DNA of 64,000 nucleotides from Alphaproteobacteria bacterium MarineAlpha5_Bin5 (GCA_002938205.1 PTKZ01000003.1:23667-87666); one strand, 5' to 3'. Positions 4,847 through 55,561 are shown, counted from the stretch's first letter. A program made the numbers and translations. Notes: generated from the letters alone by a model not told the origin.

Positions 4847-6160
4847 TTAAAGTATAAATTTTGATAAGTCCTGACTTTTAATGAGTTCCCCTAAGTTAGT
4901 TTCTACGAATTTTTTATCAATTGTTATTTTTGTTGGACCTATATCAGAGGCATTAAAACTAACTTCCTCAAGAAGCTTTTCCATTATCGTGTGCAACCTT
5001 CTCGCCCCAATGTTTTCAACGTTTTGATTTATTTCAGTTGCAAGGGAGGCAATTGCATCAACGCCATTTTCTTTAAAATCTAACTCAACTTTTTCTGTTC
5101 CCAATAAACCAACATATTGTTTTATTAGGCTGTTTTGTGTTTCGGTGAGTATAAGTTTAAAATCTTCTTTACTTAAGCTATCTAGCTCAACCCTTATTGG
5201 CAGCCTTCCTTGAAGCTCTGGAAGCATGTCAGCGGGTTTTGATAAGTGAAAAGCTCCAGATGCTATAAATAAAATATAATCAGTTTTAACTACACCGTGC
5301 TTAGTTGCTACTGCAGTTCCTTCAATTAATGGAAGCAAATCTCTTTGAACCCCCTCCCTTGAAACATCTGCCCCACTTCTTTCACTTCTTGATGTTATTT
5401 TATCAATTTCATCAATAAAAACTATTCCATTTTGCTCAACATTTTCTAATGCCCTAGCGTTTATCTTATCTTGATCTAAAAGCTTGTCTGTTTCTTCAGC
5501 TAGCAAATAGCTATGTGAATCTTTGACAGTCATTTTTTTTAATTTTTTTTGTTTTCCAAAACCCTTTCCAAAAACATCACCAAGATTTATCATTCCCATT
5601 TGAGAACCGGGCATACCAGGTATATCCATGGTTGGTAAATTTAAAGAAGCATTAGAGGATACTGGTATTTCTACCTCGCTATCATTTAAATCACCATTTC
5701 TTAATTTTTGTCTAAAGCTGTCTCTGGTTGAAGCGCCTGAATTTTTAGAAACCAAAACATCTATAATTTTTTCTTCGGCATTTTTTTCAGCTTTGGCCTT
5801 AACCTCCTGACCCATTTGAAGCTTGGTTTTTGTAATGCTTATTTCTACAAGATCACGTATTATTTGCTCAACATCCCTTCCAACATAACCAACCTCAGTA
5901 AACTTTGTTGCTTCTACCTTTATAAAAGGAGCATCAGCCAACTTAGCTAATCTTCTAGAAATTTCTGTCTTTCCACAACCTGTTGGACCTACCATAAGTA
6001 TGTTTTTTGGAACAATTTCTTCTCTCAAACTTTCGTCTAACTGCTTTCTTCTCCAGCGATTTCTTAAAGCAACTGCAACAGAACGTTTTGCATTTTTTTG
6101 ACCTATAATAAATTTATCAAGCTCGGAAACCGTTTCTCTTGGACTAAAGCTAGATTCCAT
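4847..6160 (-). CDS. hslU: ATP-dependent protease ATPase subunit HslU
   Basis: 437 aa. It has the Walker A motif GPTGCGKTE and the typical HslU N-terminus ([15 protein letters not shown]). It lies directly after hslV. Confidence 0.96.
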
Positions 6161-6709
6161 TTAAATTTCTATTGTTTCAGATATTATGTTGTGGTTTGTG
6201 TAAACACATATATCTGCAGCTATGTTAAGTGATTCAATAGCTATATCTTTAGCATTCATTTCAGTATTTTTTATCAGCGCCTTTGCGGCACTGTTTGCAT
6301 AAGGCCCCCCAGAACCAATTGCTAAAATTCCATCATCTGATTCAATTACATCTCCTGTTCCAGACAATAGAAGACTAACGTTTTTGTCTGCAACAATCAT
6401 CATTGCCTCTAATCTCCTTAGATATCTGTCTGTTCTCCAATCTTTTGCTAATTCAACACAGGCTCTTTTTAATTGATTTTTATATTGGTCTAATTTTGCT
6501 TCAAGCCTTTCAAACAAAGCAAAAGCATCGGCTGTTGATCCCGCAAAACCAGAAATAACTGAGTTGTCTGAGCCTAAGCGTCTTATTTTTTTAACATTAG
6601 ACTTCATTACTGTGTTTCCAAAACTAGCCTGACCATCTCCAGCAATTACAACTAAATTATTTTTTCTTATGCCAATAATTGTTGTTGATTTAATAAGGTT
6701 TTTTTTCAT
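6161..6709 (-). CDS. hslV: ATP-dependent protease subunit HslV
   Basis: 182 aa. It has a Thr-protease N-terminus (TTIIGIRK) and GSGGPYA, and abuts hslU with a 0-nt gap. Confidence 0.95.
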
Positions 6710-6727
6710 TTTTTTTATATTTTCTTA

Positions 6728-6755
6728 AAATGGCTATTTAATTTCTTTTATCAAG
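6728..6755 (-). promoter_or_regulatory. Sigma-32-type promoter upstream of hslVU
   Basis: The minus strand reads CTTGATA-N13-AGCCATTT, against the E. coli RpoH consensus CTTGAAA-N13-15-CCCCATNT. The -10 element ends 18 nt before the hslV ATG. Confidence 0.5.
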
Positions 6756-6800
6756 GGATTTGCCTAGAATAATTCGAATTTCCTGATATTAGACCCATTT

Positions 6801-7388
6801 ATGCGCAAAAATACAATTAGCAGAAAAACTAAAGAAACTGAGATTACTTGTAACATAAATATTGATGGTTTAGGAATAGCAAATATATCTACAGGTATTG
6901 GTTTTTTTGACCATATGTTAGAAATATTTTCTCATCACAGTCTAATTGACTTAGAGTTAAAAGCTAGTGGCGATACACATGTAGATCTTCATCATACGGT
7001 TGAGGATACAGCCTATACCATTGCCCAAGGCATCTTAAAATCTTTAGGAGATAAAAAAGGCATATCTCGTTATGGGTTTTATTACACGCCCATGGACGAT
7101 TGTCTTTCACGTTGTGTGATTGATTTTTCTGGCAGGCCCGAACTAGTATGGAATGTTAAGCTCAACTTAGAAAAAGTTGGAGAAATGGACACGGAGCTTT
7201 TCCCAGAATTTTTCAAAGCATTTACCAATGAAGCAAAGTGCAATCTTCATATTGAGAATTTTTATGGAAAAAACAATCATCATATTATTGAATCATGCTT
7301 TAAGGCATTTGCACGAAGTGTTAGAGCGGCTGTTAAGATTGACGAAAGAGCAAAAGACAGAATTCCTTCTTCAAAAGGCACTTTATAA
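6801..7388 (+). CDS. hisB: Imidazoleglycerol-phosphate dehydratase
   Basis: 195 aa. [17 protein letters not shown] and HHxxE motifs are present. Confidence 0.94.
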
Positions 7389-7394
7389 TTATTA

Positions 7395-8027
7395 ATGACA
7401 AAGCAAATTACCATAGTTGATTATGGTCTTGGGAACATATTGTCTGCCCAACAATCTTTTATAAAAGTAATAAAAGATAATAACATTGATGCCAACATAA
7501 CAATATCAAACAATCCAGAAATTATAAAAAAATCTTCACACGTAGTTCTTCCTGGTCAAGGTGCTTTTGAAACATGTATAAAGGGACTTTCAAACATACC
7601 GGGAATGATAGACGAGTTATATAAATTTGCTGTTCTTAAAAAAAACCCCTTTCTTGGAATTTGCGTAGGCATGCAGCTTCTTGCATTAGATAGTGAGGAA
7701 AACGGAAAACATAAAGGACTAGGTTGGATTGAAGGCCATATAAAAAAACTTCCTACTCAGAATCTTAAAATGCCCCACATGGGATGGAATACAGTAAAAT
7801 TAAAAAATAATTTAAACTCTCACATACAACCCAAGGAAACAGATTATTATTTTGTTCATAGTTATTATTTTAAGTGTTTAAATGAAAAAAACATTCTAGC
7901 AGAAACTGTATATGGCATAAATTTTACTTCTATTGTTGTTAAAGAAAATATATATGGTGTCCAATTTCATCCTGAAAAAAGCTCTTTACAAGGCTTAGAA
8001 ATTATAAGGCAGTTTGCTGAATTGTGA
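7395..8027 (+). CDS. hisH: Imidazole glycerol phosphate synthase, glutaminase subunit
   Basis: 210 aa class I glutamine amidotransferase with GICVGMQLL and VQFHPEKS. Confidence 0.93.
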   Translation: MTKQITIVDYGLGNILSAQQSFIKVIKDNNIDANITISNNPEIIKKSSHVVLPGQGAFETCIKGLSNIPGMIDELYKFAVLKKNPFLGICVGMQLLALDSEENGKHKGLGWIEGHIKKLPTQNLKMPHMGWNTVKLKNNLNSHIQPKETDYYFVHSYYFKCLNEKNILAETVYGINFTSIVVKENIYGVQFHPEKSSLQGLEIIRQFAEL

Positions 8028-46535: not shown

Positions 46536-46575
46536 AATTTATGTCGGTATGCCATTGTGGGTGCTGACATTTAAC

Positions 46576-46598
46576 TTGCTTAATAAGGAGTTTTTATG
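46576..46598 (+). promoter_or_regulatory. Candidate ROSE-like RNA thermometer hairpin masking the Shine-Dalgarno of the Hsp20 gene
   Basis: UUGCU (46576-46580) lies 5 nt upstream of AGGAG (46586-46590). Antiparallel pairing gives U:G, U:A, G.G, C:G and U:A, which is the U(U/C)GCU-versus-SD arrangement of ROSE elements. A second imperfect hairpin lies at about 46543-46568. Confidence 0.4.
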
Positions 46599-47033
46599 AC
46601 AAGAAACCTATCCGTATGGAATTCACTAAGACCGTTTTCAGTAGGATTTGACTCAATTTTTGAAGAATTTGATAAAATGTTAGATTCTTCAGAGCGCTAT
46701 AATTCAAATTATCCACCTTATAATATCCATCGTTCAGATGAGAATAATTATAAAATAGAAGTAGCTCTAGCCGGCTATAGCAAGGATGATATTGAAGTTG
46801 AACTTAAAGATAGCACATTAACTGTGAGGAACAAACAACAAGAAAAAGTTGTGAATCAAAATGGCAATGATGTTATTCATAAAGGCATATCAACAAGACA
46901 ATTTGAAAGAGCATTTACAATTTCAGAAGATATTAAAATTAAAAATGCTGAACTAAAAAATGGTCTGTTAAATATCAATTTGGAGCGCATAATCCCTGAA
47001 GAAAAAAAGGCACGGTTAATAGAAATTAAATAA
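46596..47033 (+). CDS. ibpA: Small heat shock protein (Hsp20/IbpA family)
   Basis: 145 aa with an alpha-crystallin domain: PPYNI...Y.IEVALAGYSKDDIEVEL.D..L.V and F.RAF.L. Confidence 0.9.
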   Translation: MTRNLSVWNSLRPFSVGFDSIFEEFDKMLDSSERYNSNYPPYNIHRSDENNYKIEVALAGYSKDDIEVELKDSTLTVRNKQQEKVVNQNGNDVIHKGISTRQFERAFTISEDIKIKNAELKNGLLNINLERIIPEEKKARLIEIK

Positions 47034-47050
47034 ATTAGAATTATTCTAAA
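47034..47050. promoter_or_regulatory. Irr/ICE-box-like perfect palindrome
   Basis: The sequence is ATTAGAATTATTCTAAA. Its core, TTAGAAT-T-ATTCTAA, is a perfect 7-1-7 inverted repeat and matches TTTAGAA-N3-TTCTAAA. Confidence 0.55.
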
Positions 47051-47067
47051 TAGATTTAATAAGGATA

Positions 47068-47096
47068 GGGGCCCAAAGTGGCCCCATTTTTATTTT
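47068..47096 (+). terminator. Rho-independent terminator after the Hsp20 gene
   Basis: GGGGCC (47068-47073) pairs with GGCCCC (47080-47085) around a 6-nt loop. ATTTTTATTTT follows. Confidence 0.75.
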
Positions 47097-47097
47097 A

Positions 47098-47125
47098 TTG
47101 GAAAATTATAAAAGTAAACTATAAT
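47098..47125 (+). promoter_or_regulatory. Sigma-70-like promoter, possibly producing a leaderless mRNA
   Basis: The sequence is TTGGAA-N16-TATAAT. The -10 element ends 6 nt before the ATG at 47132. AT-rich DNA makes chance matches likely. Confidence 0.35.
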
Positions 47126-47131
47126 TAATAT

Positions 47132-47833
47132 ATGAGGTTAAGTTTAATTATTATTTTTTTATTTAGCTCCAATCTATTTGCTCATCAGCCAAAGTTAATT
47201 AATTATTCACCTTCTTTAGATAATCCTCATCAGGTTATAGATCCAGAAATATCTAAAGCATATTATGGAAAGCTTAGTGGTGAACCACATTATTATATAA
47301 TTAATAGTGAAGAAGATTTTTTATTTTACACTGGTATTTTAAGTCCTAAAGTTGATGATGATTACTTATCGTTATCACTTGCTGTATATTCGATAAATGA
47401 AAAAAATAATAAAATATTAAAATTTTTTGCTGATGGTCAGAATTTTGAATGGGAAGCATGGTATGAACCGTATGCCAGAGATTGGTATTGGAAAGGGCCT
47501 GAAATAGGAGCCGAAGTAAATGAATATACAGGCTTTAAAAGAAGTTTTAATTTGTCTAAAGGTTCTTACTTAATACAAATTTTTAATAAGAATAATTTAG
47601 GTCATTACTCTCTTGCAGTTGGTGAAGCTGAATTTTTTGGGTCCAATGCATGGGAACAGATTTTAACATGGACTCCTATCCTTTTATATATTGGACCTTA
47701 TATGGATATAGTGCATTGGCAAAAATTTGATATTCGTGCGTATATTCCGCATATAGCTCTTGTAGTTTTAGTATTTCTAATTTATTTCATCATTAAAAAA
47801 TTATTCTTTAGAAAACAAAAAATGTTTGTATGA
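47132..47833 (+). CDS. Hypothetical exported/membrane-anchored protein with predicted N-terminal His after signal cleavage
   Basis: 233 aa. It has the signal peptide MRLSLIIIFLFSSNLFA followed by HQPK, and hydrophobic C-terminal segments (IPHIALVVLVFLIYFII). I recognise no family. It overlaps the hupE-like gene by 4 nt. Confidence 0.5.
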   Translation: MRLSLIIIFLFSSNLFAHQPKLINYSPSLDNPHQVIDPEISKAYYGKLSGEPHYYIINSEEDFLFYTGILSPKVDDDYLSLSLAVYSINEKNNKILKFFADGQNFEWEAWYEPYARDWYWKGPEIGAEVNEYTGFKRSFNLSKGSYLIQIFNKNNLGHYSLAVGEAEFFGSNAWEQILTWTPILLYIGPYMDIVHWQKFDIRAYIPHIALVVLVFLIYFIIKKLFFRKQKMFV

Positions 47834-48432
47834 AATTGAATTTAATTTTACTTTTTTCATCTATTTTATTTTTTACCTCTGCAGTTCAAGCACATACTTT
47901 TACTGGTATGGTAGGTTTTTATGATGGTCTTTCGCATCCAGTTTTGGGTATAGATCATTTTTTGGCAATGGTTAGTGTCGGTATTGTAAGCGCTCAAATA
48001 GGAGGAAGAGCAATTTGGACAATTCCTGCAACTTTTGTTTTAATGATGATTGTTGGCGGAATTATTGGCATGTTAGTTGAGGTTTTCTTTTTTGATTTAG
48101 AAGAATCCGCATTTATAGTTGTTGAATATGGAATAGTCTTTTCCGTCATATTATTGGGTTTAGCAATTGCTATAGAAAAAAAAATCGCCACTAATGTTAT
48201 AATGATTTTCATTTGCATTTTTGGACTGTGTCATGGATTAGCTCACGGAATGGAGATGCCATGGGCGGTTAATCCAATATTATTCGCACTTGGTTTTGCT
48301 TCTGGAACAGCCACGTTACATTTATTTGGTGTTGGAATCGGTAGCTTTGCAATTAAGAATAAATTTTCATCAATTGTTTTAAGGATTGTTGGATTCGGGT
48401 GTGTAGTTTTTGGAATATCATTATTAATTTAA
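47830..48432 (+). CDS. hupE: HupE/UreJ family metal transporter
   Basis: 200 aa. The signal peptide ends AVQA and is followed by HTFTG. It has GLSHPVLGIDHFLAMVSVG and several transmembrane segments. Confidence 0.8.
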   Translation: MKLNLILLFSSILFFTSAVQAHTFTGMVGFYDGLSHPVLGIDHFLAMVSVGIVSAQIGGRAIWTIPATFVLMMIVGGIIGMLVEVFFFDLEESAFIVVEYGIVFSVILLGLAIAIEKKIATNVIMIFICIFGLCHGLAHGMEMPWAVNPILFALGFASGTATLHLFGVGIGSFAIKNKFSSIVLRIVGFGCVVFGISLLI

Positions 48433-48433
48433 A

Positions 48434-48450
48434 ATTAGAATAATTCTAAA
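48434..48450. promoter_or_regulatory. Irr/ICE-box-like perfect palindrome
   Basis: The sequence is ATTAGAATAATTCTAAA. It is identical to the 47034 copy except for the central base. It lies in the 194-nt gap upstream of the DUF4856-like/hydroxylase/fbpAB genes. Confidence 0.55.
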
Positions 48451-48626
48451 AATATCTTTTTTTTATTATTTTATTTTTGTTTTTTTATAAATAATTTTTT
48501 TTTATTATTTAAATATATAAAACTCTTTGACTTTTTACGAGTCTGTGGGAGCTAATTAAAGTAATTAAGTTTCTCTAATTTCGTTTTTTAGCTCTCGCAA
48601 AATAATTAATTTACTATGAGGAGATT

Positions 48627-49994
48627 ATGAAAAAAACTTTTATTCTTATTTTTACAATATTCATTTCTTTTAGTTTTGTAAAAACTTCACTAGCTGATGT
48701 TTATGGGCCTTACCCAATTACCTTACAGGGATATGATGGAGATAAAACAAATTCAGTTAAATATACTGGACAAATGGCAAGACATGCGCTTCATGATAGT
48801 TTGAAAGCATTAGTCAAAACAGGTGATGTTTCTAAAATGATGGCATATTATAATGGTGAGGATAATTTGGAAATTATTGCACCTAAATCAAAAGATGATT
48901 TTGTAGTTAAGCAAACTATGATTTCAGAAATTGGTAGCGGCAATCTTTCTGGAAAAATGTACAAAGGATATATACCTGGTTGGGGCAACTTAACTGGACC
49001 AGAAGCAATAGAACATATGATGACTAAGGCAGGAGAAGTTGAGGGTGGATTTGATCCTGATACAGGAATGGATTACACACAACTAATTTCTAAATTTGCT
49101 ATGGGTGCTGTTTTTTATAATCAAGCTGTAAACAACTACCTAGGTAAAAAAATGGAAATCGGTCAAAAACCAAATAATAAACCATACAAAGATGGAGCTT
49201 ACTACACAGGTAAAGAACATAGCTGGGACGAAGCTTTTGGTTATTGGGGTTCAGCGGCACACGCATTAACTCTAAATGCAGAAGAAAATTATAATGTTGC
49301 AAAGAAAAAAGACATGGCATCTGCAGACTACAATGGTGATGGTGTTGTCGATTTATATTCAGAGTATACTTATGCCCATGCTTATTATGCTTCTAGCTAT
49401 GATAAAGGTGGTAAAACAAATTATTTAGCTACAATTAATCAAGCATTTATTAATGGAAGAGAAATCATTCGTGATGCAGATGGACGAAATTTAAGTTTTG
49501 ATGAAAGAACTAAATTATTGGCTAAAAGAGATGTTATTAGAGATAATTGGCAAAAAGTAATTGCTGAATCTGTCTTTAAATATGCCGGCTCTACCTATAA
49601 AGATCTAGTTAAGCTTGAGACGATTATGGAAGCTAATGGCGATACAACAGAAGCATTTAGAACTTATGCAAAACATTGGGGTGAACTTAAAGGTTTTGCA
49701 CTAGCTTTACAGTGCGGTCCTGATGATCTTGGAGAAACAGCAGTGAAGATGAATCGTATGATGGGATTTGGTCCTGTTCTTCTAAATTCCTCTCAAGTCG
49801 TTGGTGTTGACTCTCAAGGTAATTTTATTAAAGATCAAGCGCAAGATTGGTCTGAGTTTAAACTTCATATGCTTAAAATTCAAAAACTTATGGAGGATGA
49901 ATTTGGTGTAACTGCAAAGTCAAAAGATATGCTTTCTGATATGGCAGATCTTTCAGGAAAAATTGGAAGCGCTGACTCAGCAGAAAATGACTAA
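48627..49994 (+). CDS. Periplasmic protein, DUF4856-like (function unknown)
   Basis: 455 aa with a signal peptide. The core block EHSWDEAFGYWGSAAH and the Ca-loop-like DYNGDGVVD are present. The family assignment is from memory of the motif, not from a search. Confidence 0.45.
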   Translation: MKKTFILIFTIFISFSFVKTSLADVYGPYPITLQGYDGDKTNSVKYTGQMARHALHDSLKALVKTGDVSKMMAYYNGEDNLEIIAPKSKDDFVVKQTMISEIGSGNLSGKMYKGYIPGWGNLTGPEAIEHMMTKAGEVEGGFDPDTGMDYTQLISKFAMGAVFYNQAVNNYLGKKMEIGQKPNNKPYKDGAYYTGKEHSWDEAFGYWGSAAHALTLNAEENYNVAKKKDMASADYNGDGVVDLYSEYTYAHAYYASSYDKGGKTNYLATINQAFINGREIIRDADGRNLSFDERTKLLAKRDVIRDNWQKVIAESVFKYAGSTYKDLVKLETIMEANGDTTEAFRTYAKHWGELKGFALALQCGPDDLGETAVKMNRMMGFGPVLLNSSQVVGVDSQGNFIKDQAQDWSEFKLHMLKIQKLMEDEFGVTAKSKDMLSDMADLSGKIGSADSAEND

Positions 49995-50007
49995 AAATAT
50001 GTATTTT

Positions 50008-50046
50008 ATTGGTGCGTTTATTAATTTAAATGCACCAATATTTTAA
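50008..50046 (+). terminator. Hairpin/possible attenuating terminator after the DUF4856-like gene
   Basis: ATTGGTGC (50008-50015) pairs with GCACCAAT (50032-50039) and ATTTTAATT follows. The loop of about 14-16 nt is large, so this is weak as a terminator. Confidence 0.35.
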
Positions 50047-50048
50047 TT

Positions 50049-51068
50049 ATGGAATTAATTACTGAATATATAACAGGAATAAGTAATCAATTTTTTGATC
50101 CAAAAAAAAGGGTTTTTTTAATTTATATACTTTTATCTATATTAATTGCATTTTTTTGGTTTGTTTTTTATAAAAAAAAATCTTTACTGAGTTCTTTTAA
50201 AAAAATTTTTGATAAAAAGGTATTTTTTTCAACATCATCAAAATCTGACTACAAAGTCTTTTTAATTAATCAAATGATAATGATGTTAATTTCACCTTTT
50301 TTAATAACGCAATTAGCTATTGCCACTACTCTATATTTTTATTTCCATACTATTAATTGGCTAAGTGTTGGTATGTATAGTAACACTTTGCCAATTGTTT
50401 TTATTTCTTTATTTACTATTTTTCAATTTACTCTCGATGATTTTAGTAAATTTATTATTCATCGTTTTATGCATAAGTGGCCAATTTTGTGGTCAATTCA
50501 TAAAGTTCATCATTCAGCAACAACTCTAACACCAATGACTGTGTTTAGAACACATCCGCTTGAGGGAATAATTTTTTCAATTAGAAGTTCAGTAACACAA
50601 GCTGTGAGTATTTCAGTGTTCTTTTTTTTATTTGGCAATAGTGTAGATTTATTTACAATTTTAGGTGTGAATATTTTTGTTTTTTTATTTAACATTTTTG
50701 GATCTAATTTAAGACACTCTCATATTGGAATTAGGTACTGGCAATGGTTAGAACATATATTAATTTCACCTGCACAACATCAGTTACACCATTCAATTGC
50801 AAGGGAACACCATGATAAAAATTTTGGATCTGCTTTAGCTTGCTGGGATTGGATGTTTGGTTCTTTGCATCATTCAATTGAATTTGAAAATTTACAAATT
50901 GGTATTAAAAAAAATCAAATAGAAAATAGCCATAGTTTATCTAGTTTATATGTTGGGCCATTAATTGAGATAAATAATTTTATTATTAAAAAATTTTTAA
51001 AAACCAAATCTAAATTTATAGAATTGTTTTCAAAAACGGGATTAGTCAATGATAATAAAATTAATTAA
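50049..51068 (+). CDS. Fatty acid hydroxylase/sterol desaturase superfamily membrane protein
   Basis: 339 aa with several hydrophobic segments and three His boxes: HRFMH, HKVHH and HQLHH. Confidence 0.8.
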   Translation: MELITEYITGISNQFFDPKKRVFLIYILLSILIAFFWFVFYKKKSLLSSFKKIFDKKVFFSTSSKSDYKVFLINQMIMMLISPFLITQLAIATTLYFYFHTINWLSVGMYSNTLPIVFISLFTIFQFTLDDFSKFIIHRFMHKWPILWSIHKVHHSATTLTPMTVFRTHPLEGIIFSIRSSVTQAVSISVFFFLFGNSVDLFTILGVNIFVFLFNIFGSNLRHSHIGIRYWQWLEHILISPAQHQLHHSIAREHHDKNFGSALACWDWMFGSLHHSIEFENLQIGIKKNQIENSHSLSSLYVGPLIEINNFIIKKFLKTKSKFIELFSKTGLVNDNKIN

Positions 51069-52068
51069 GTTTTTTTTATTTAATATTTCAATATTTTCTA
51101 CACCAATTTTATTTTCAAAAGAAATTAACATTTACTCACATCGTCAGCCTTTTTTAATAAATCCATTTTTAGATCTTTTTACAGAAGAAACGGGAATTAA
51201 AACAAATGTTATATACTCTAAAACAGGTCTGGCTCAACGACTAAAAGCAGAAGGTGAGAATAGCCCAGCCGATGTTATTCTAACTGTTGATATAGGTAGG
51301 ATATACATATATGATGATTTAAATCTTCTTGCTCCTGTAAACTCAGCAAAACTTATAAATAATATTCCAGTGTACTTAAGAAGTCCTAATAATACATGGT
51401 TTGGTCTTTCTAAAAGAGCAAGAGTTATAGCGATAAATAAAAACAAAATAAAAGATGGTGATATATTAAGAATTGAAGATTTAGCTGATAAGAAGTGGAA
51501 AGGTAAAATATGTTCTCGACCAGGTAGTCATGTTTATAATAGAGGGATTATGGCTTCTGTAGTGGCGGCTCTAGGTGAAAAGGAAGCTGAAGAATGGGCA
51601 AAGAAATTAGTAAATAATTTTGCCAAAAGACCCCAGGGAAATGATAGAGCTCAAGTCAAGGCTATACATGAAGGTGAGTGTGATATTGCTTTAATTAATA
51701 ACTATTATTTTGGGAAGCTTAAATTTTCTGAAGATCCTGAACAGAGAAAATGGGTGGACAATGTTAAATTAGTTTTTCCTAATCAAGGAGAAAATGACAG
51801 GGGTGCCCATGTTAATATTTCAGGCGGAGGAGTTGTAAAGTTTTCTAAAAATAAAGAGAATGCTTTGGCCTTGCTTGAATTCCTAACAAGTGAAAAAGCA
51901 CAAAAATTATATGGAGAGATTAACTTTGAATATCCTGTTAATCCAAAAGTATCACCAAGTGTAGAGCTTCAAAAATGGGGCAAATTTAGAGAAGATAATT
52001 TGTCTATAATAAAAATTGCCGAACTAAGTCCATTATCACAAAAGATAATTGATAGAGTGGGATGGTAG
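51049..52068 (+). CDS. fbpA: Fe(3+) ABC transporter substrate-binding protein
   Basis: 339 aa with a signal peptide. INIYSHRQPFL and the AfuA/FbpA/SfuA-like body are present. It overlaps the hydroxylase gene by 20 nt. Confidence 0.85.
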   Translation: MIIKLIKFFLFNISIFSTPILFSKEINIYSHRQPFLINPFLDLFTEETGIKTNVIYSKTGLAQRLKAEGENSPADVILTVDIGRIYIYDDLNLLAPVNSAKLINNIPVYLRSPNNTWFGLSKRARVIAINKNKIKDGDILRIEDLADKKWKGKICSRPGSHVYNRGIMASVVAALGEKEAEEWAKKLVNNFAKRPQGNDRAQVKAIHEGECDIALINNYYFGKLKFSEDPEQRKWVDNVKLVFPNQGENDRGAHVNISGGGVVKFSKNKENALALLEFLTSEKAQKLYGEINFEYPVNPKVSPSVELQKWGKFREDNLSIIKIAELSPLSQKIIDRVGW

Positions 52069-52086
52069 TTTATAATATAGATCTTT

Positions 52087-53694
52087 TTGTACAACTGGAA
52101 TAGTTCATCAACAGTAGCCATTATTTTAGCTACTCTAATAATTGCACCTATTGTTGCAATTTTTCTTTCTGCTTTATTTGGTGATACAACTTTATGGCCA
52201 CACTTGTTTTCAACAGTTCTTCCCAGATATGTATATAACACAATTGTATTAATGATTGGTGTGGGTGCACTAAGTTTAATTTTTGGTATTTCAAGCGCCT
52301 GGGTTGTAACAAGATATAATTTTTTTGGAAAATTTATTTTTGAATGGGCTTTATTGCTTCCAGCTGCTGTGCCAGCCTATATCATTGCTTATACTTATAC
52401 AGACTTTCTTGAATATGCAGGTCCAGTCCAAATATTACTTAGAGAAATTTTTGGTTGGGATAATTCAGGAGACTATTGGTTTCCTGAAATCAGATCAATG
52501 GGCGGAGCAATTCTTGTAATTTCATGTGTGCTTTATCCATATATATATATGATGACCAGAGCATCTTTTTTAACTGTACCTATTTCATTTTATCAAACTA
52601 GCTTAATTTATGGGCGGAATAGTTTTTTATCTGTTGCTTTGCCTTTAGCTAGACCTGGAATTTTTGCAGGCTTAGCACTTGTTTTAATGGAAACGATTTC
52701 AGATTTTGGAACAGTAGAATATTTTGCTTTAGAAACCTTAACGCTAGGTGTTTTTAATGTTTGGTTAGGTATGAATAGTTTATCTGGTGCGGCACAAATA
52801 TCTTCAGTGTTATTTATTTTTGTTGTTGTACTTTTAACAATTGAATATTTAGCCAGACGTCGTCAGAGGTTTCACGAAATTAGTAGTGGTCAAAATATGC
52901 TTGAATCTGAGAATTTAAGTAACTCAAAGAAATTGCTATGTTTTTTAATTTGCTTAGTACCCATTCTATTAGGTTTTGTAATCCCCGTTTTAATTTTATT
53001 AAATTTTGTTTTTAGTGGATTTTCTATTATTGATTTTAAAGAAATTTTTAGAACAGCTTTTACAAGTATATCATTGGCTTTTTTTGGATCTTTATTTGTA
53101 ATGCTTACATCAGTTTTAATGATGATTATTTCAAATTATAAGTCAAACAACTTTCAAAAATCGTTAATTTTTTTAGCTTCTTGTGGTTATGCTCTTCCAG
53201 GAACAATACTAGCTGTTGGAATAGTAATTTTTGTTGGATGGCTCAATCAAATAATACACTTTCAATTAAGTTACGTTTTGGGCGGCTTTATAGTATTAAT
53301 TTTTGCTTATATTACAAGATTTTTGGCAGTGGGAAATGCCGCTATTAGATCTGGTATTTTAAAAATTCACCCTAATGCTATGGATGCCTCACTAACCATG
53401 GGTGCTGGTTTTATGGATAGTATTAGAAAAATTATTATACCATTATTATTTACTAATATATTAATTGGAGGGATTTTAGTTTTTGTTGATATTTTAAAAG
53501 AGCTTCCTATTACTCTATTATTAAGACCTTTTAATTTTGAAACTCTTGCAACTTATGTCTATCAGTATGCTTCTGATGAATTATTACAAGAATCATCATT
53601 TGCTGCTTTAATTATTATTGTTGTAGGTTTGGGCCCAGTGATTTTTTTGAACTCTACACTTCAGCGTGTATCTAGAAAAAAACAAAGCAATTAG
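52087..53694 (+). CDS. fbpB: Fe(3+) ABC transporter permease (fused two-domain)
   Basis: 535 aa with a TTG start. It is a duplicated binding-protein-dependent permease fold of typical FbpB/SfuB size. Confidence 0.85.
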   Translation: MYNWNSSSTVAIILATLIIAPIVAIFLSALFGDTTLWPHLFSTVLPRYVYNTIVLMIGVGALSLIFGISSAWVVTRYNFFGKFIFEWALLLPAAVPAYIIAYTYTDFLEYAGPVQILLREIFGWDNSGDYWFPEIRSMGGAILVISCVLYPYIYMMTRASFLTVPISFYQTSLIYGRNSFLSVALPLARPGIFAGLALVLMETISDFGTVEYFALETLTLGVFNVWLGMNSLSGAAQISSVLFIFVVVLLTIEYLARRRQRFHEISSGQNMLESENLSNSKKLLCFLICLVPILLGFVIPVLILLNFVFSGFSIIDFKEIFRTAFTSISLAFFGSLFVMLTSVLMMIISNYKSNNFQKSLIFLASCGYALPGTILAVGIVIFVGWLNQIIHFQLSYVLGGFIVLIFAYITRFLAVGNAAIRSGILKIHPNAMDASLTMGAGFMDSIRKIIIPLLFTNILIGGILVFVDILKELPITLLLRPFNFETLATYVYQYASDELLQESSFAALIIIVVGLGPVIFLNSTLQRVSRKKQSN

Positions 53695-54737
53695 CTTTGA
53701 AACATGAATGTTTCACTTTGATCTATTTCAATTTCTACTGCAGATGATTGTTGGGGATTAAAATCAGGAGGCATATGACTATGAATATGTATCACTTCAT
53801 TGTTTTTGTCCAGAACTGATAAATGTATAAAACTGAAAGATCCAATTAGTTTTGACGCCATTACAGTACCTTTAATTCCGTTAACAGGGGTTGGCTGTTC
53901 ATTCAACTTTATACCTTTTGGTCTTATATGAACTTCAACTTTTTTATTTTCAAGATTATTAGGTGCTTTAATTTTTCCAAGAGGGGTATCAACAAATGAA
54001 TTATTTACAATGCCTTCAAACTTATTTGTTTCTCCAAAAAATTCAGTTACATAAGAATTATTAGGGTTATTATATAATTCTTCTGCCGTTCCTGTCTGTA
54101 TAATGTGACCAGATGTATCCATTATATTTATTTGATTTGAAATAAACATAGCCTCGAAAGGATCATGGGTAACTATTATTACAGACACATTTGATTTTTG
54201 AAGTAAATGTAATGTGTCATCTCTTACCTCTTCTCTTAAGTTTAGATCTAAACTTGAGAACGGTTCATCAAGTAATAACAAGTCTGGATTAGAAATAATT
54301 GATCTTGCTAAAGCTACTCTTTGTTGTTCACCTCCACTTAATTCATGAGGATATTTATTTAAAGAATTAGGAAGTTTGATTAATTCCGCCATATCTTCAA
54401 TAGTATGAGCAGAATTTTTAAAATTTATTGGATACTCAAGATTTTGTTTAACGGTTAAGTGAGGAAATAAGGCATAATCTTGAAATAAAAAACCAACCTT
54501 TCTTTTTTCTGTTGGTAAGTGATGAGTTAATGAACTAACTTCATTATCATTAATTGTAATGGAGCCTGATTGGACTCTTTCAAGACCAGCAATTAATTTT
54601 AAGAGTGTTGTTTTGCCACTACCTGACGGGCCAAGAATACAGGCTATGGTATCTTTTTTTAATTCAAAATTAATATTTTGAAGAATGGGTTGATTCTTTA
54701 TAGAATAATTAAGATTCTTTATTTTAACAGCTTCCAT
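53691..54737 (-). CDS. fbpC: Fe(3+)/spermidine-type ABC transporter ATP-binding protein
   Basis: 348 aa with the Walker A motif GPSGSGKTT, LSGGEQQRVALAR and a C-terminal TOBE-like domain. It is convergent with fbpB and overlaps it by 4 nt. Confidence 0.85.
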   Translation of the reverse strand: MEAVKIKNLNYSIKNQPILQNINFELKKDTIACILGPSGSGKTTLLKLIAGLERVQSGSITINDNEVSSLTHHLPTEKRKVGFLFQDYALFPHLTVKQNLEYPINFKNSAHTIEDMAELIKLPNSLNKYPHELSGGEQQRVALARSIISNPDLLLLDEPFSSLDLNLREEVRDDTLHLLQKSNVSVIIVTHDPFEAMFISNQINIMDTSGHIIQTGTAEELYNNPNNSYVTEFFGETNKFEGIVNNSFVDTPLGKIKAPNNLENKKVEVHIRPKGIKLNEQPTPVNGIKGTVMASKLIGSFSFIHLSVLDKNNEVIHIHSHMPPDFNPQQSSAVEIEIDQSETFMFQS

Positions 54738-55561
54738 TAGGCACTTATAGCAGGGTACTTAGCGTTAACAAGTGGTATCCATTCTTTTAATTTTTTTATA
54801 CGATTATCTGGTGAAGGATGAGTGCTAAAAAATTCAGAAGGTCCAGAGCCGCCAACATCTTCTTTCATTCGTTCCCATACTTTATATGATTCATTAATAT
54901 CATATCCTCCTAAACTTGAAAAAATTAATCCTAAATAGTCAGCTTCTGATTCTTGTTTACGATTAAAAGGAAGATCTAATCCAAATTGACGAACATATCC
55001 AGCTGCTTTTGGTAGTCTTTGACCTAAGACTAGTTGTTCTAAAGCCATTGTTCCCACATCTGCTAAAATTGCTGTACTTGCTCTTTCAGCTGAGTGTCTT
55101 GCTACGGCGTGGGCAACTTCATGGCCCATAATGGAAGCAATACCATCTTGATTTTTTGCAATCGGCAAAATACCTGAATAAAATGCAATTTTACCTCCAG
55201 GCATACACCAAGCATTTTTTGTTTGATCATCATCTACTAATACAAATTCCCATTGAAAGTTTGATGTTGGATTTTCTAGATTGTTATATTGATAATACGC
55301 ATTGATAGCATCACGGATTTTATATCCTATTTCTACTATCTGATCATATTCGGCAGTACCAGTAATCAATTTAGTTTGCGATTTAAAATTATTATAAGCA
55401 GGAAAAGTTTTTGAATAAAGAAAATCATCAGACAAAATATTAAATTGTTTTCTATCTGACATAGCTACTTCAGTGCATGCAGGTAGCAATAAGCCACTTG
55501 CGCATGTGCAACCAGCTGTGTAAATAAATTTTCTTCTTGATAAATGTATTAATTTTGACAT
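54737..55561 (-). CDS. M48 family zinc metallopeptidase with Tat-like signal
   Basis: 274 aa. It has HEVAHAVARH (HExxH) and a downstream ESEAD. The N-terminus LSRRKFIYTAGCTCASGLLLPAC resembles a twin-arginine signal with candidate lipobox cysteines. Its stop overlaps the fbpC start by 1 nt. Confidence 0.8.
   Translation of the reverse strand: MSKLIHLSRRKFIYTAGCTCASGLLLPACTEVAMSDRKQFNILSDDFLYSKTFPAYNNFKSQTKLITGTAEYDQIVEIGYKIRDAINAYYQYNNLENPTSNFQWEFVLVDDDQTKNAWCMPGGKIAFYSGILPIAKNQDGIASIMGHEVAHAVARHSAERASTAILADVGTMALEQLVLGQRLPKAAGYVRQFGLDLPFNRKQESEADYLGLIFSSLGGYDINESYKVWERMKEDVGGSGPSEFFSTHPSPDNRIKKLKEWIPLVNAKYPAISA

Follow-up and report, generated by a model that had tools for sequence, protein, structure and literature searches.

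Iron limits bacterial growth across large areas of the ocean. SAR11-type cells have neither siderophores nor TonB receptors, and the way in which they extract iron from organic complexes is unclear. The closest described relatives of the system examined here are the ferric-iron importers FbpABC, FutABC and SfuABC. In SAR11, the iron regulation of the sfu operon is an experimental result obtained in cultured cells (PMC2864753), the fbp operon of HTCC1062 has been predicted to be under Fur-alpha control (PMC1698941), and published work takes sfuABC as the whole system (PMC2864753, PMC1698941, PMC13271415). Here we analyse a stretch of 64,000 nucleotides from Alphaproteobacteria bacterium MarineAlpha5_Bin5 (GCA_002938205.1, PTKZ01000003.1:23667-87666; hereafter the window, with positions counted from its first letter). 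At positions 48,627 to 53,694 it carries an importer operon of this type that is headed by two further genes, one for a DUF4856 protein and one for a His-box membrane protein of the FA_hydroxylase superfamily.

We read this locus as an iron-starvation-responsive ferric-iron uptake operon headed by a conserved two-gene accessory pair, and we give that reading a probability of about 0.6. The pair itself stands on solid ground: it is real, ancient and tied to iron uptake genetically and, by prediction, in its regulation. DUF4856 and a specific His-box subfamily have been co-inherited in alpha- and gammaproteobacteria as well as in other marine lineages, and we found the pair with iron-uptake genes in well over 100 marine genomes and metagenome contigs. 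The searchable literature yielded no mention of DUF4856 or PF16148 and nothing relevant that links a sterol desaturase/fatty acid hydroxylase with iron uptake, and papers on SAR11 iron physiology and on imelysin mention neither gene of the pair.

Organisation of the operon

The operon runs on the plus strand from the DUF4856 gene through a hairpin to the His-box FA_hydroxylase gene, the gene of a FutA/FbpA-type binding protein and fbpB, with the gene of the ATP-binding cassette (ABC) ATPase convergent to it:

48627–49994, plus strand: DUF4856 gene, 455 residues, Sec signal peptide (Pfam, 7e-12)
50049–51068, plus strand: His-box membrane protein of the FA_hydroxylase superfamily, 339 residues (Pfam, 2.8e-20)
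51049–52068, plus strand: FutA/FbpA-type periplasmic Fe3+-binding protein (phmmer against the PDB)
52087–53694, plus strand: FbpB-type fused double permease, 535 residues, two BPD_transp_1 stretches
53691–54737, minus strand: ABC ATPase, FbpC/PotA-like (ABC_tran)

A six-frame list of open reading frames reproduces exactly the gene order and coordinates that had been claimed for this locus from the sequence alone. It also reproduces the claimed 20-nucleotide overlap in which the His-box gene, ending at 51068, runs past the start of the binding-protein gene at 51049, with fbpB following at 52087–53694. The earlier calls of a DUF4856-like protein and a His-box oxygenase hold too, as all four operon proteins exceed the curated Pfam cut-offs. 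The 455-residue protein scores 45.4 bits against PF16148 (DUF4856; gathering threshold 22.3) in a match that spans residues 139–352 only, and the 339-residue protein scores 73.5 bits against PF04116 (FA_hydroxylase; cut-off 31). The binding protein matches SBP_bac_8, SBP_bac_1, SBP_bac_6 and SBP_bac_11, and the permease matches BPD_transp_1 twice.

The binding protein is close to solved Fe3+-binding proteins, with phmmer values of 3.4e-88 to Trichodesmium FutA (6G7N), 2.5e-87 to Synechocystis FutA1 (2PT1) and 9e-78 to Mannheimia FbpA (1Q35). In alignment with FutA, its segments around Y29, Y163 and Y219-Y220 fall on YS.., ..YN.. and ..YY.., respectively. The position of the FutA histidine is occupied by glutamine, and a histidine lies two residues earlier. 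The FbpBC core is represented by the fused double permease and by the ABC_tran ATPase on the opposite strand, whose 3′ end overlaps that of fbpB by 4 nucleotides. Because the start of the ATPase gene and the stop of an M48 metallopeptidase gene share 1 nucleotide (both on the minus strand, spanning 53691–55561), the ATPase is probably cotranscribed with the peptidase, outside the operon that appears to be governed by an iron control element (ICE).

Conservation of the accessory pair

We sampled one genome per GTDB species with a scan for the DUF4856 family signature, kept the 80 best loci (numbered with an L below) and mapped the window's proteins onto them by tblastn. The nearest DUF4856 relatives, 78–84% identical to the window's protein, belong to genomes, from single cells or metagenomes, that carry the label Pelagibacterales, Pelagibacteraceae or 'MarineAlpha5'. 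Among the loci with room downstream, the His-box gene directly follows the DUF4856 gene on the same strand in 75 of 77. This count comprises 73 loci that passed the filter and two from Pseudothioglobus (L025 and L026) in which the genes overlap by 16 nucleotides; the exceptions are L062, from Neptuniibacter caesariensis MED92, and L068. An FbpA-type binding protein comes next after the pair in 54 of 70 loci, and the permease and the ATPase usually follow it. Synteny with fbpA in relatives, on which the original prediction had staked much, is thus borne out for the pair and for FbpA. Together with the ICE and Fur boxes described below, the two counts support its notion of an undescribed accessory module of a ferric-iron operon.

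The carriers include Pelagibacterales-labelled genomes, SAR116, Rhodobacteraceae, Nisaea, Rhodospirillales, Neptuniibacter, Endobugula, Pseudothioglobus and Marinomonas, and further metagenome-assembled genomes labelled SAR324, Marinimicrobia and Acidimicrobiaceae. The place of the ATPase gene varies among them. It is colinear with the operon in most gammaproteobacterial and some alphaproteobacterial loci, including the close relatives L007 and L012. Most members of the window's clade have the convergent gene instead, and the layout seen in the window is kept in close relatives. Where no binding-protein gene follows, the pair stands alone beside unrelated genes (isocitrate dehydrogenase, mannitol dehydrogenase, SecA), with a TonB-dependent receptor, DsbD or a di-haem oxidoreductase occasionally nearby.

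This record effectively refutes the idea that the two genes are historical hitch-hikers whose adjacency carries no functional coupling: small streamlined genomes do pack unrelated genes together and overlaps are common in the window, but the pair holds in 75 of 77 loci across classes, recurs in a rearranged operon (27 of 30 distant contigs, described next), and its orthologues co-diverge.

A second iron-uptake operon built on the same pair

A distant clade of DUF4856 proteins, about 30% identical to the window's, sits in an operon of another order: DUF4856, imelysin (Peptidase_M75), TonB-dependent receptor, His-box protein. In L087 (3931–14024) these four genes (DUF4856, Peptidase_M75, TonB-dependent receptor, FA_hydroxylase) diverge from the genes of an FbpABC-type transporter. 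With the distant clade as its seed, a metagenome scan returned 80 marine contigs (L088–L167). Of the contigs long enough to be judged, 59 of 61 have M75 after DUF4856, 34 of 36 then have the receptor and 27 of 30 the His-box gene. An FbpABC-type transporter adjoins the four-gene operon in two contigs, L087 and L101. The link between DUF4856 and iron loci elsewhere, which the original prediction had put forward, is thus borne out by this second type of operon, in which imelysin and a TonB-dependent receptor accompany the pair.

The distant-clade His-box proteins are 28–38% identical to the window's. Outside the His boxes, both clades share residues specific to this subfamily, namely R21, S63, D67, N74, D131, R179 and the N220–S224 segment, and also a DPxKR N-terminus with an extra transmembrane helix. 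Judged from these gene orders and alignments, the DUF4856 and His-box pair is kept through a complete swap of its iron-uptake partners. We consider this our strongest argument that the two proteins share one pathway.

As a side observation, genes for DUF1513 proteins or di-haem oxidoreductases occur near the operon in L086, L102, L161, L167 and L076.

Predicted regulatory elements of the operon

Three elements bear on how the operon may be controlled, and a fourth heads the gene pair 5′ of it:

48435–48449: ICE-like palindrome 2 (ICE-2), TTAGAATAATTCTAA, perfect, 192 nucleotides 5′ of the DUF4856 start
48526–48602, plus strand: structured 5′-leader RNA, a small hairpin and then a long-range stem, between ICE-2 and the start codon
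50007–50040, plus strand: intergenic stem-loop followed by a T-rich run, between the DUF4856 and His-box genes
47035–47049: ICE-like palindrome 1 (ICE-1), TTAGAATTATTCTAA, perfect, just past the hsp20 stop and about 97 nucleotides 5′ of a 233-residue open reading frame

The ICE motif is the palindrome TTAGAA-N3-TTCTAA. The original prediction had spoken of an ICE-like box; the window in fact holds two perfect copies, against 0.04 expected. We then have in ICE-2 a palindrome that stands 5′ of an iron gene and is kept in orthologous promoters, the hallmark of the Irr/ICE regulon as far as a sequence motif can display it, and ICE-2 is predicted to be the operon's Irr-type operator. Irr activates iron-transport genes of Bradyrhizobium at low iron. 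Because ICE-2 lies upstream of any plausible promoter, its position would fit such a role of Irr as a low-iron activator.

We surveyed the 350 nucleotides 5′ of the DUF4856 gene in 83 loci, with the rest of the same loci as background. Perfect ICE palindromes occur in 8 of the 83 (0.0028 expected per region), and the loci that bear them belong to the window's clade, save one from a Filomicrobium metagenome-assembled genome. Fur boxes (TGATAATnATTATCA) are present in 18 of the 83 loci with at most one mismatch (0.0028 expected per region) and in 32 with at most two (0.017 expected). The distant DUF4856 clade carries Fur-like boxes in 15 of 64 loci, against 0.018 expected.

The leader RNA is supported by comparison of seven relatives, in which RNAalifold predicts 14 base pairs; compensatory double changes occur at 9 of these. 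It lies at 7900–7976 in L005, L006 and L011, at 7844–7915 in L009, at 7890–7971 in L002, at 7874–7965 in L008 and at 7873–7964 in L010. A covariance model built from these seven, with the window left out, returned 48526–48602 as its best non-seed match, a weak one (21.8 bits, E 0.24). The RNA is confined to the window's clade and has no Rfam match. It may be the candidate RNA of Smith et al. upstream of sfuABC in HTCC1062.

The hairpin between the first two genes had been described as weak. It is strong instead, with a 14-bp stem and a minimum free energy of −19.1 kcal/mol, and an equivalent hairpin is found in about 80% of 77 orthologous gaps (median z −3.6 against shuffles). It is probably a partial terminator or an mRNA stabiliser. 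Since a conserved structure follows the first gene, we infer that DUF4856 would be made in excess over the downstream membrane components. Such an excess is common for periplasmic binding proteins.

The DUF4856 protein

Searches returned 2229 DUF4856 homologues and 812 cluster representatives, and the named ones carry no title beyond 'DUF4856 domain-containing protein'. The family signature, EHxWDE[AG]FGY and W[GS]E[LM]KGF, is invariant in 58 diverse members, all 58 of which match PF16148. In the 455-residue protein of the window, EHSWDEAFGYWG occupies residues 197–208 and DYNGDGVVD residues 234–242. Also invariant in the 58 members are Y46, Q49, R52, K156, Y171, H198, D201, D234, E246, D259, R278, Y319, W351, E353, K355 and Q362, and E202, Y206 and W308 are nearly so. 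The types of these residues suggest a binding pocket.

Residues 234–246 form an EF-hand-like loop, DxNxDGxxD...E, in which D234, N236, D238, G239, V241, D242 and E246 are all present. Its final acidic residue is at position 13, not 12 as in the EF-hand. Matches to EF-hand_5 and EF-hand_1 are weak (21 of 58 and 11 of 58 members, best E 0.0015), as is that to polcalcins (E 0.006), and sequence and profile searches of the protein against the PDB gave EF-hand loop matches only.

Distant members have a near-invariant lipobox cysteine, and some carry a Fasciclin, Cadherin, PPC or TSP_3 domain in fusion; on both grounds the family is predicted with confidence to be extracytoplasmic. An AlphaFold2 (AF2) model computed from the 58-sequence alignment reached a predicted local distance difference test score (pLDDT) of 93.2 and a predicted template modelling score (pTM) of 0.91 and is all-alpha with two small hairpins; a model from a shallow alignment (pLDDT 60.8) was discarded. 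Foldseek comparison of the model with the PDB gave nothing at E ≤ 0.1, and the 50 listed matches are helical-bundle or unrelated proteins with no imelysin structure among them. The 455-residue protein therefore falls outside any characterised family, as had been supposed, there being no such match in Pfam, NCBIfam, PDB profile and fold searches.

Two further relationships were tried and rejected. Homology to imelysin (M75) is contradicted by the absence of any PF09375 match in the 58 members at E up to 10, by an hhalign probability of 8% against two bona fide M75 proteins (from L086 and L087) in which only the signal peptide aligned, and by the Foldseek result against the PDB. An internal duplication relating EHxWDE to HWxE is unsupported, as hhalign of the N-terminal half against the C-terminal half aligned just those motifs (E 0.37).

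In Leptospira interrogans, a PerR-controlled operon encodes a TonB-dependent receptor and the lipoprotein LipL48, and mutants of the operon are sensitive to paraquat (PMC7567364). LipL48 may be a DUF4856 protein. A further candidate member of one of the two families is SAR11_1239 of HTCC1062, described as an 'unknown protein', whose expression rises 2.5-fold when iron is limiting (PMC2864753).

The His-box protein

The His boxes are HRFMH (138–142), HKVHH (151–155) and HQLHH (244–248). Conservation of H138, H142, H151, H154, H155, H169, H223, H244, H247, H248 and H254 is at least 98% among 76 orthologues, and in the 31 distant-clade orthologues it is complete except for H254 (25 of 31). Because the eight canonical histidines of FA_hydroxylase proteins and also H169, H223 and H254 are retained, the protein is expected to be an active di-iron enzyme.

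Charge counts over the family obey the positive-inside rule: loop 1 and the His-box loop are basic, with mean K+R counts of 6.9 and 4.8, and the N-terminus is acidic or neutral, as are loops 2 and 4. On the strength of this distribution we predict a topology of five transmembrane helices with the N-terminus outside and the His boxes in the cytoplasm. In the predicted topology, nearly all conserved residues are on the cytoplasmic side and almost none on periplasmic loops. An enzyme acting on periplasmic ligands is disfavoured, because the His boxes and nearly all conserved residues are predicted to be cytoplasmic, and so is a tight complex with DUF4856. Of the two mechanisms in the original prediction, the one in which the oxygenase might process a ligand before its capture by FbpA accordingly fits poorly with the data; the other, lipid remodelling, is weighed below.

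No sequence homologue of the His-box protein was found in the PDB. An identity with OlsE (NF052566) was considered and rejected; that model is the best NCBIfam match, at 43.9 bits, nonetheless far below its equivalog cut-off of 475.

Proposed role of the pair

We propose that the operon would respond to iron starvation through the Irr-type ICE operator, with a structured leader RNA in its transcript. DUF4856 would be exported and probably made in excess owing to the attenuating hairpin. In the periplasm it would serve as a helical binding protein stabilised by calcium, which in the distant clade would be a lipoprotein. Its cargo may be iron itself or a small complex of iron with an organic molecule, handled ahead of FbpA or together with imelysin. 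The His-box protein would be an O2-dependent di-iron enzyme of the inner membrane, with its catalytic centre at the cytoplasmic face. From that placement it would follow that the enzyme probably acts on a membrane-soluble molecule of the same pathway (a lipid or an amphiphilic ligand) and not on free periplasmic ligands.

Several observations weigh against reading the locus as an iron-responsive operon with a dedicated accessory pair. The tie of both proteins to iron is a comparative one, and the regulation is a motif prediction. Rhodobacteraceae loci have neither a Fur nor an ICE box in the 350 nucleotides 5′ of the DUF4856 gene, in a survey that did not search for the regulator motifs of their own. 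About one quarter of the genomes hold the pair away from any visible iron transporter. DUF4856 has no similarity to imelysin or to any solved iron-binding fold, and its pocket is predicted from residue types. Finally, the near-absence of conserved residues on the periplasmic loops of the His-box protein leaves a complex with DUF4856 unsupported and the link between the two compartments missing.

A stronger version of the same reading, tentative and well short of an even chance, is that the pair is an unrecognised iron-acquisition device, widespread in marine bacteria, that TonB-less oligotrophs such as SAR11 need for organically complexed iron. In one form of it, the oxygenase would hydroxylate a lipid or amphiphile and thereby make or destroy a cell-bound Fe(III) ligand. 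DUF4856 would be the iron shuttle that connects this ligand with FbpA or, in the second operon type, with imelysin and the TonB-dependent receptor.

The rival that survives best, in our judgement still rather unlikely, is remodelling of the envelope under iron or oxidative stress, with the His-box enzyme hydroxylating a membrane lipid by a chemistry similar to that of OlsE or other lipid hydroxylases, DUF4856 serving in envelope or lipid handling, the Fbp link reduced to shared regulation, and both proteins having no contact with iron in the course of uptake. The FA_hydroxylase superfamily acts on lipids, OlsE is the best NCBIfam match, the catalytic side is predicted to be cytoplasmic with no conserved periplasmic surface, and the pair stands alone in some genomes, all of which would suit such a role. 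However, the protein is not OlsE, given a score of 43.9 where 475 is required, and the pair sits inside two different iron-uptake operons despite an identity of about 30%. Raising the level of an iron-requiring enzyme during iron starvation would also be costly unless the enzyme served acquisition.

We regard it as improbable that the His-box protein is instead the inner-membrane iron-handling partner of DUF4856 (a translocator, ferric reductase or ferroxidase), comparable to EfeU or EfeB with EfeO. It is the sole inner-membrane component in the operon of DUF4856, M75, TonB-dependent receptor and His-box genes, and stand-alone pairs would make a minimal periplasm-plus-membrane system. Moreover, an oxidant-activating enzyme is the usual partner of imelysin-type proteins (PMC3143127). 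However, conserved polar residues in the transmembrane helices are few, only N74 and R179 across both clades, and REXXE-like motifs are absent. In addition, the di-iron site is predicted to be cytoplasmic and FbpA-type operons already encode FbpB(C). We know of no member of the FA_hydroxylase superfamily that is a metal transporter.

In many marine lineages the importer is led by two conserved genes of no known function that are predicted to be regulated by iron. One of them has a fold with no match in the PDB, and the other is a predicted di-iron oxygenase that itself needs iron. The pair supplies specific candidates for the missing step in iron extraction by SAR11-type cells and suggests new marker genes of iron stress for metatranscriptomes and metaproteomes. 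Culturable carriers (Neptuniibacter, Marinomonas, Shimia, Thalassobius and Roseobacter sp. SK209-2-6) make genetics feasible.

Neighbouring genes

Directly 5′ of the operon, ICE-1 heads a second gene pair (47035–48432):

47132–47833, plus strand: secreted or membrane-anchored protein of 233 residues with a signal peptide and a C-terminal transmembrane helix, overlapping hupE by 4 nucleotides
47830–48432, plus strand: HupE/UreJ-family metal permease (PF04955, E 1.5e-44)

The 233-residue protein has no Pfam, NCBIfam or PDB match. The predicted mature forms of both proteins start with histidine. The cassette is present in the relatives L001, L002, L005, L008 and L009 and absent from L006, L010 and L011; in these three, the first upstream gene with a match to a protein of the window is hsp20. 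L002, a relative with 65% identity, has an insertion between hupE and the DUF4856 gene (5283–7780) that contains an ArsP_2 permease, a DtxR/MntR-type repressor (Fe_dep_repress) and two small uncharacterised genes, and the region behaves as a variable metal-homeostasis island.

The window as a whole has a G+C content of about 31%. An Rfam scan of all 64 kb gave no family at gathering score, and ARAGORN found no tRNA in it. A sub-threshold match to the ROSE_3 thermometer (46543–46601, plus strand; 23.5 bits against 43, E 0.22) falls exactly in the leader of hsp20 (46596–47033), the usual position of ROSE elements.

Comparison with known systems

The three transporter components (binding protein, double permease and ATPase) are plainly homologous to those of FbpABC, FutABC and SfuABC (2PT1, 6G7N, 1Q35 and sfuABC of HTCC1062). 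The locus differs from these systems in its two extra head genes and in an ATPase gene that lies convergent together with an M48 peptidase gene. It also differs from HTCC1062, where a Fur-alpha box has been predicted (PMC1698941), in that the operator here is of ICE type.

EfeUOB and the imelysin systems follow the same logic, in which an exported helical protein of unclear role is combined with an oxidant-activating metalloenzyme and a membrane transporter under iron regulation (predicted in the present case), and DUF4856 genes adjoin M75 genes in the distant clade. However, DUF4856 has no sequence, profile or fold similarity to M75, and the part of the redox partner, played there by a periplasmic haem peroxidase, falls here to a di-iron His-box protein of the membrane.

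Accessory redox enzymes are genetically tied to iron uptake in other systems as well, namely the PiuC/YbiX 2-oxoglutarate oxygenases of TonB-receptor loci and the inner-membrane reductases of the PepSY/FoxB type. PiuC and PiuB have been listed as candidate iron-uptake genes (PMC1698941). Unlike the His-box protein, these enzymes belong to other superfamilies, with other cofactors and another topology, and none is paired with DUF4856. OlsE and its relatives have the His-box motifs and membrane architecture in common with the enzyme described here, but the present subfamily is set apart by its own N-terminal transmembrane helix, a conserved cytoplasmic loop (S63, D67, N74) and its constant pairing with DUF4856.

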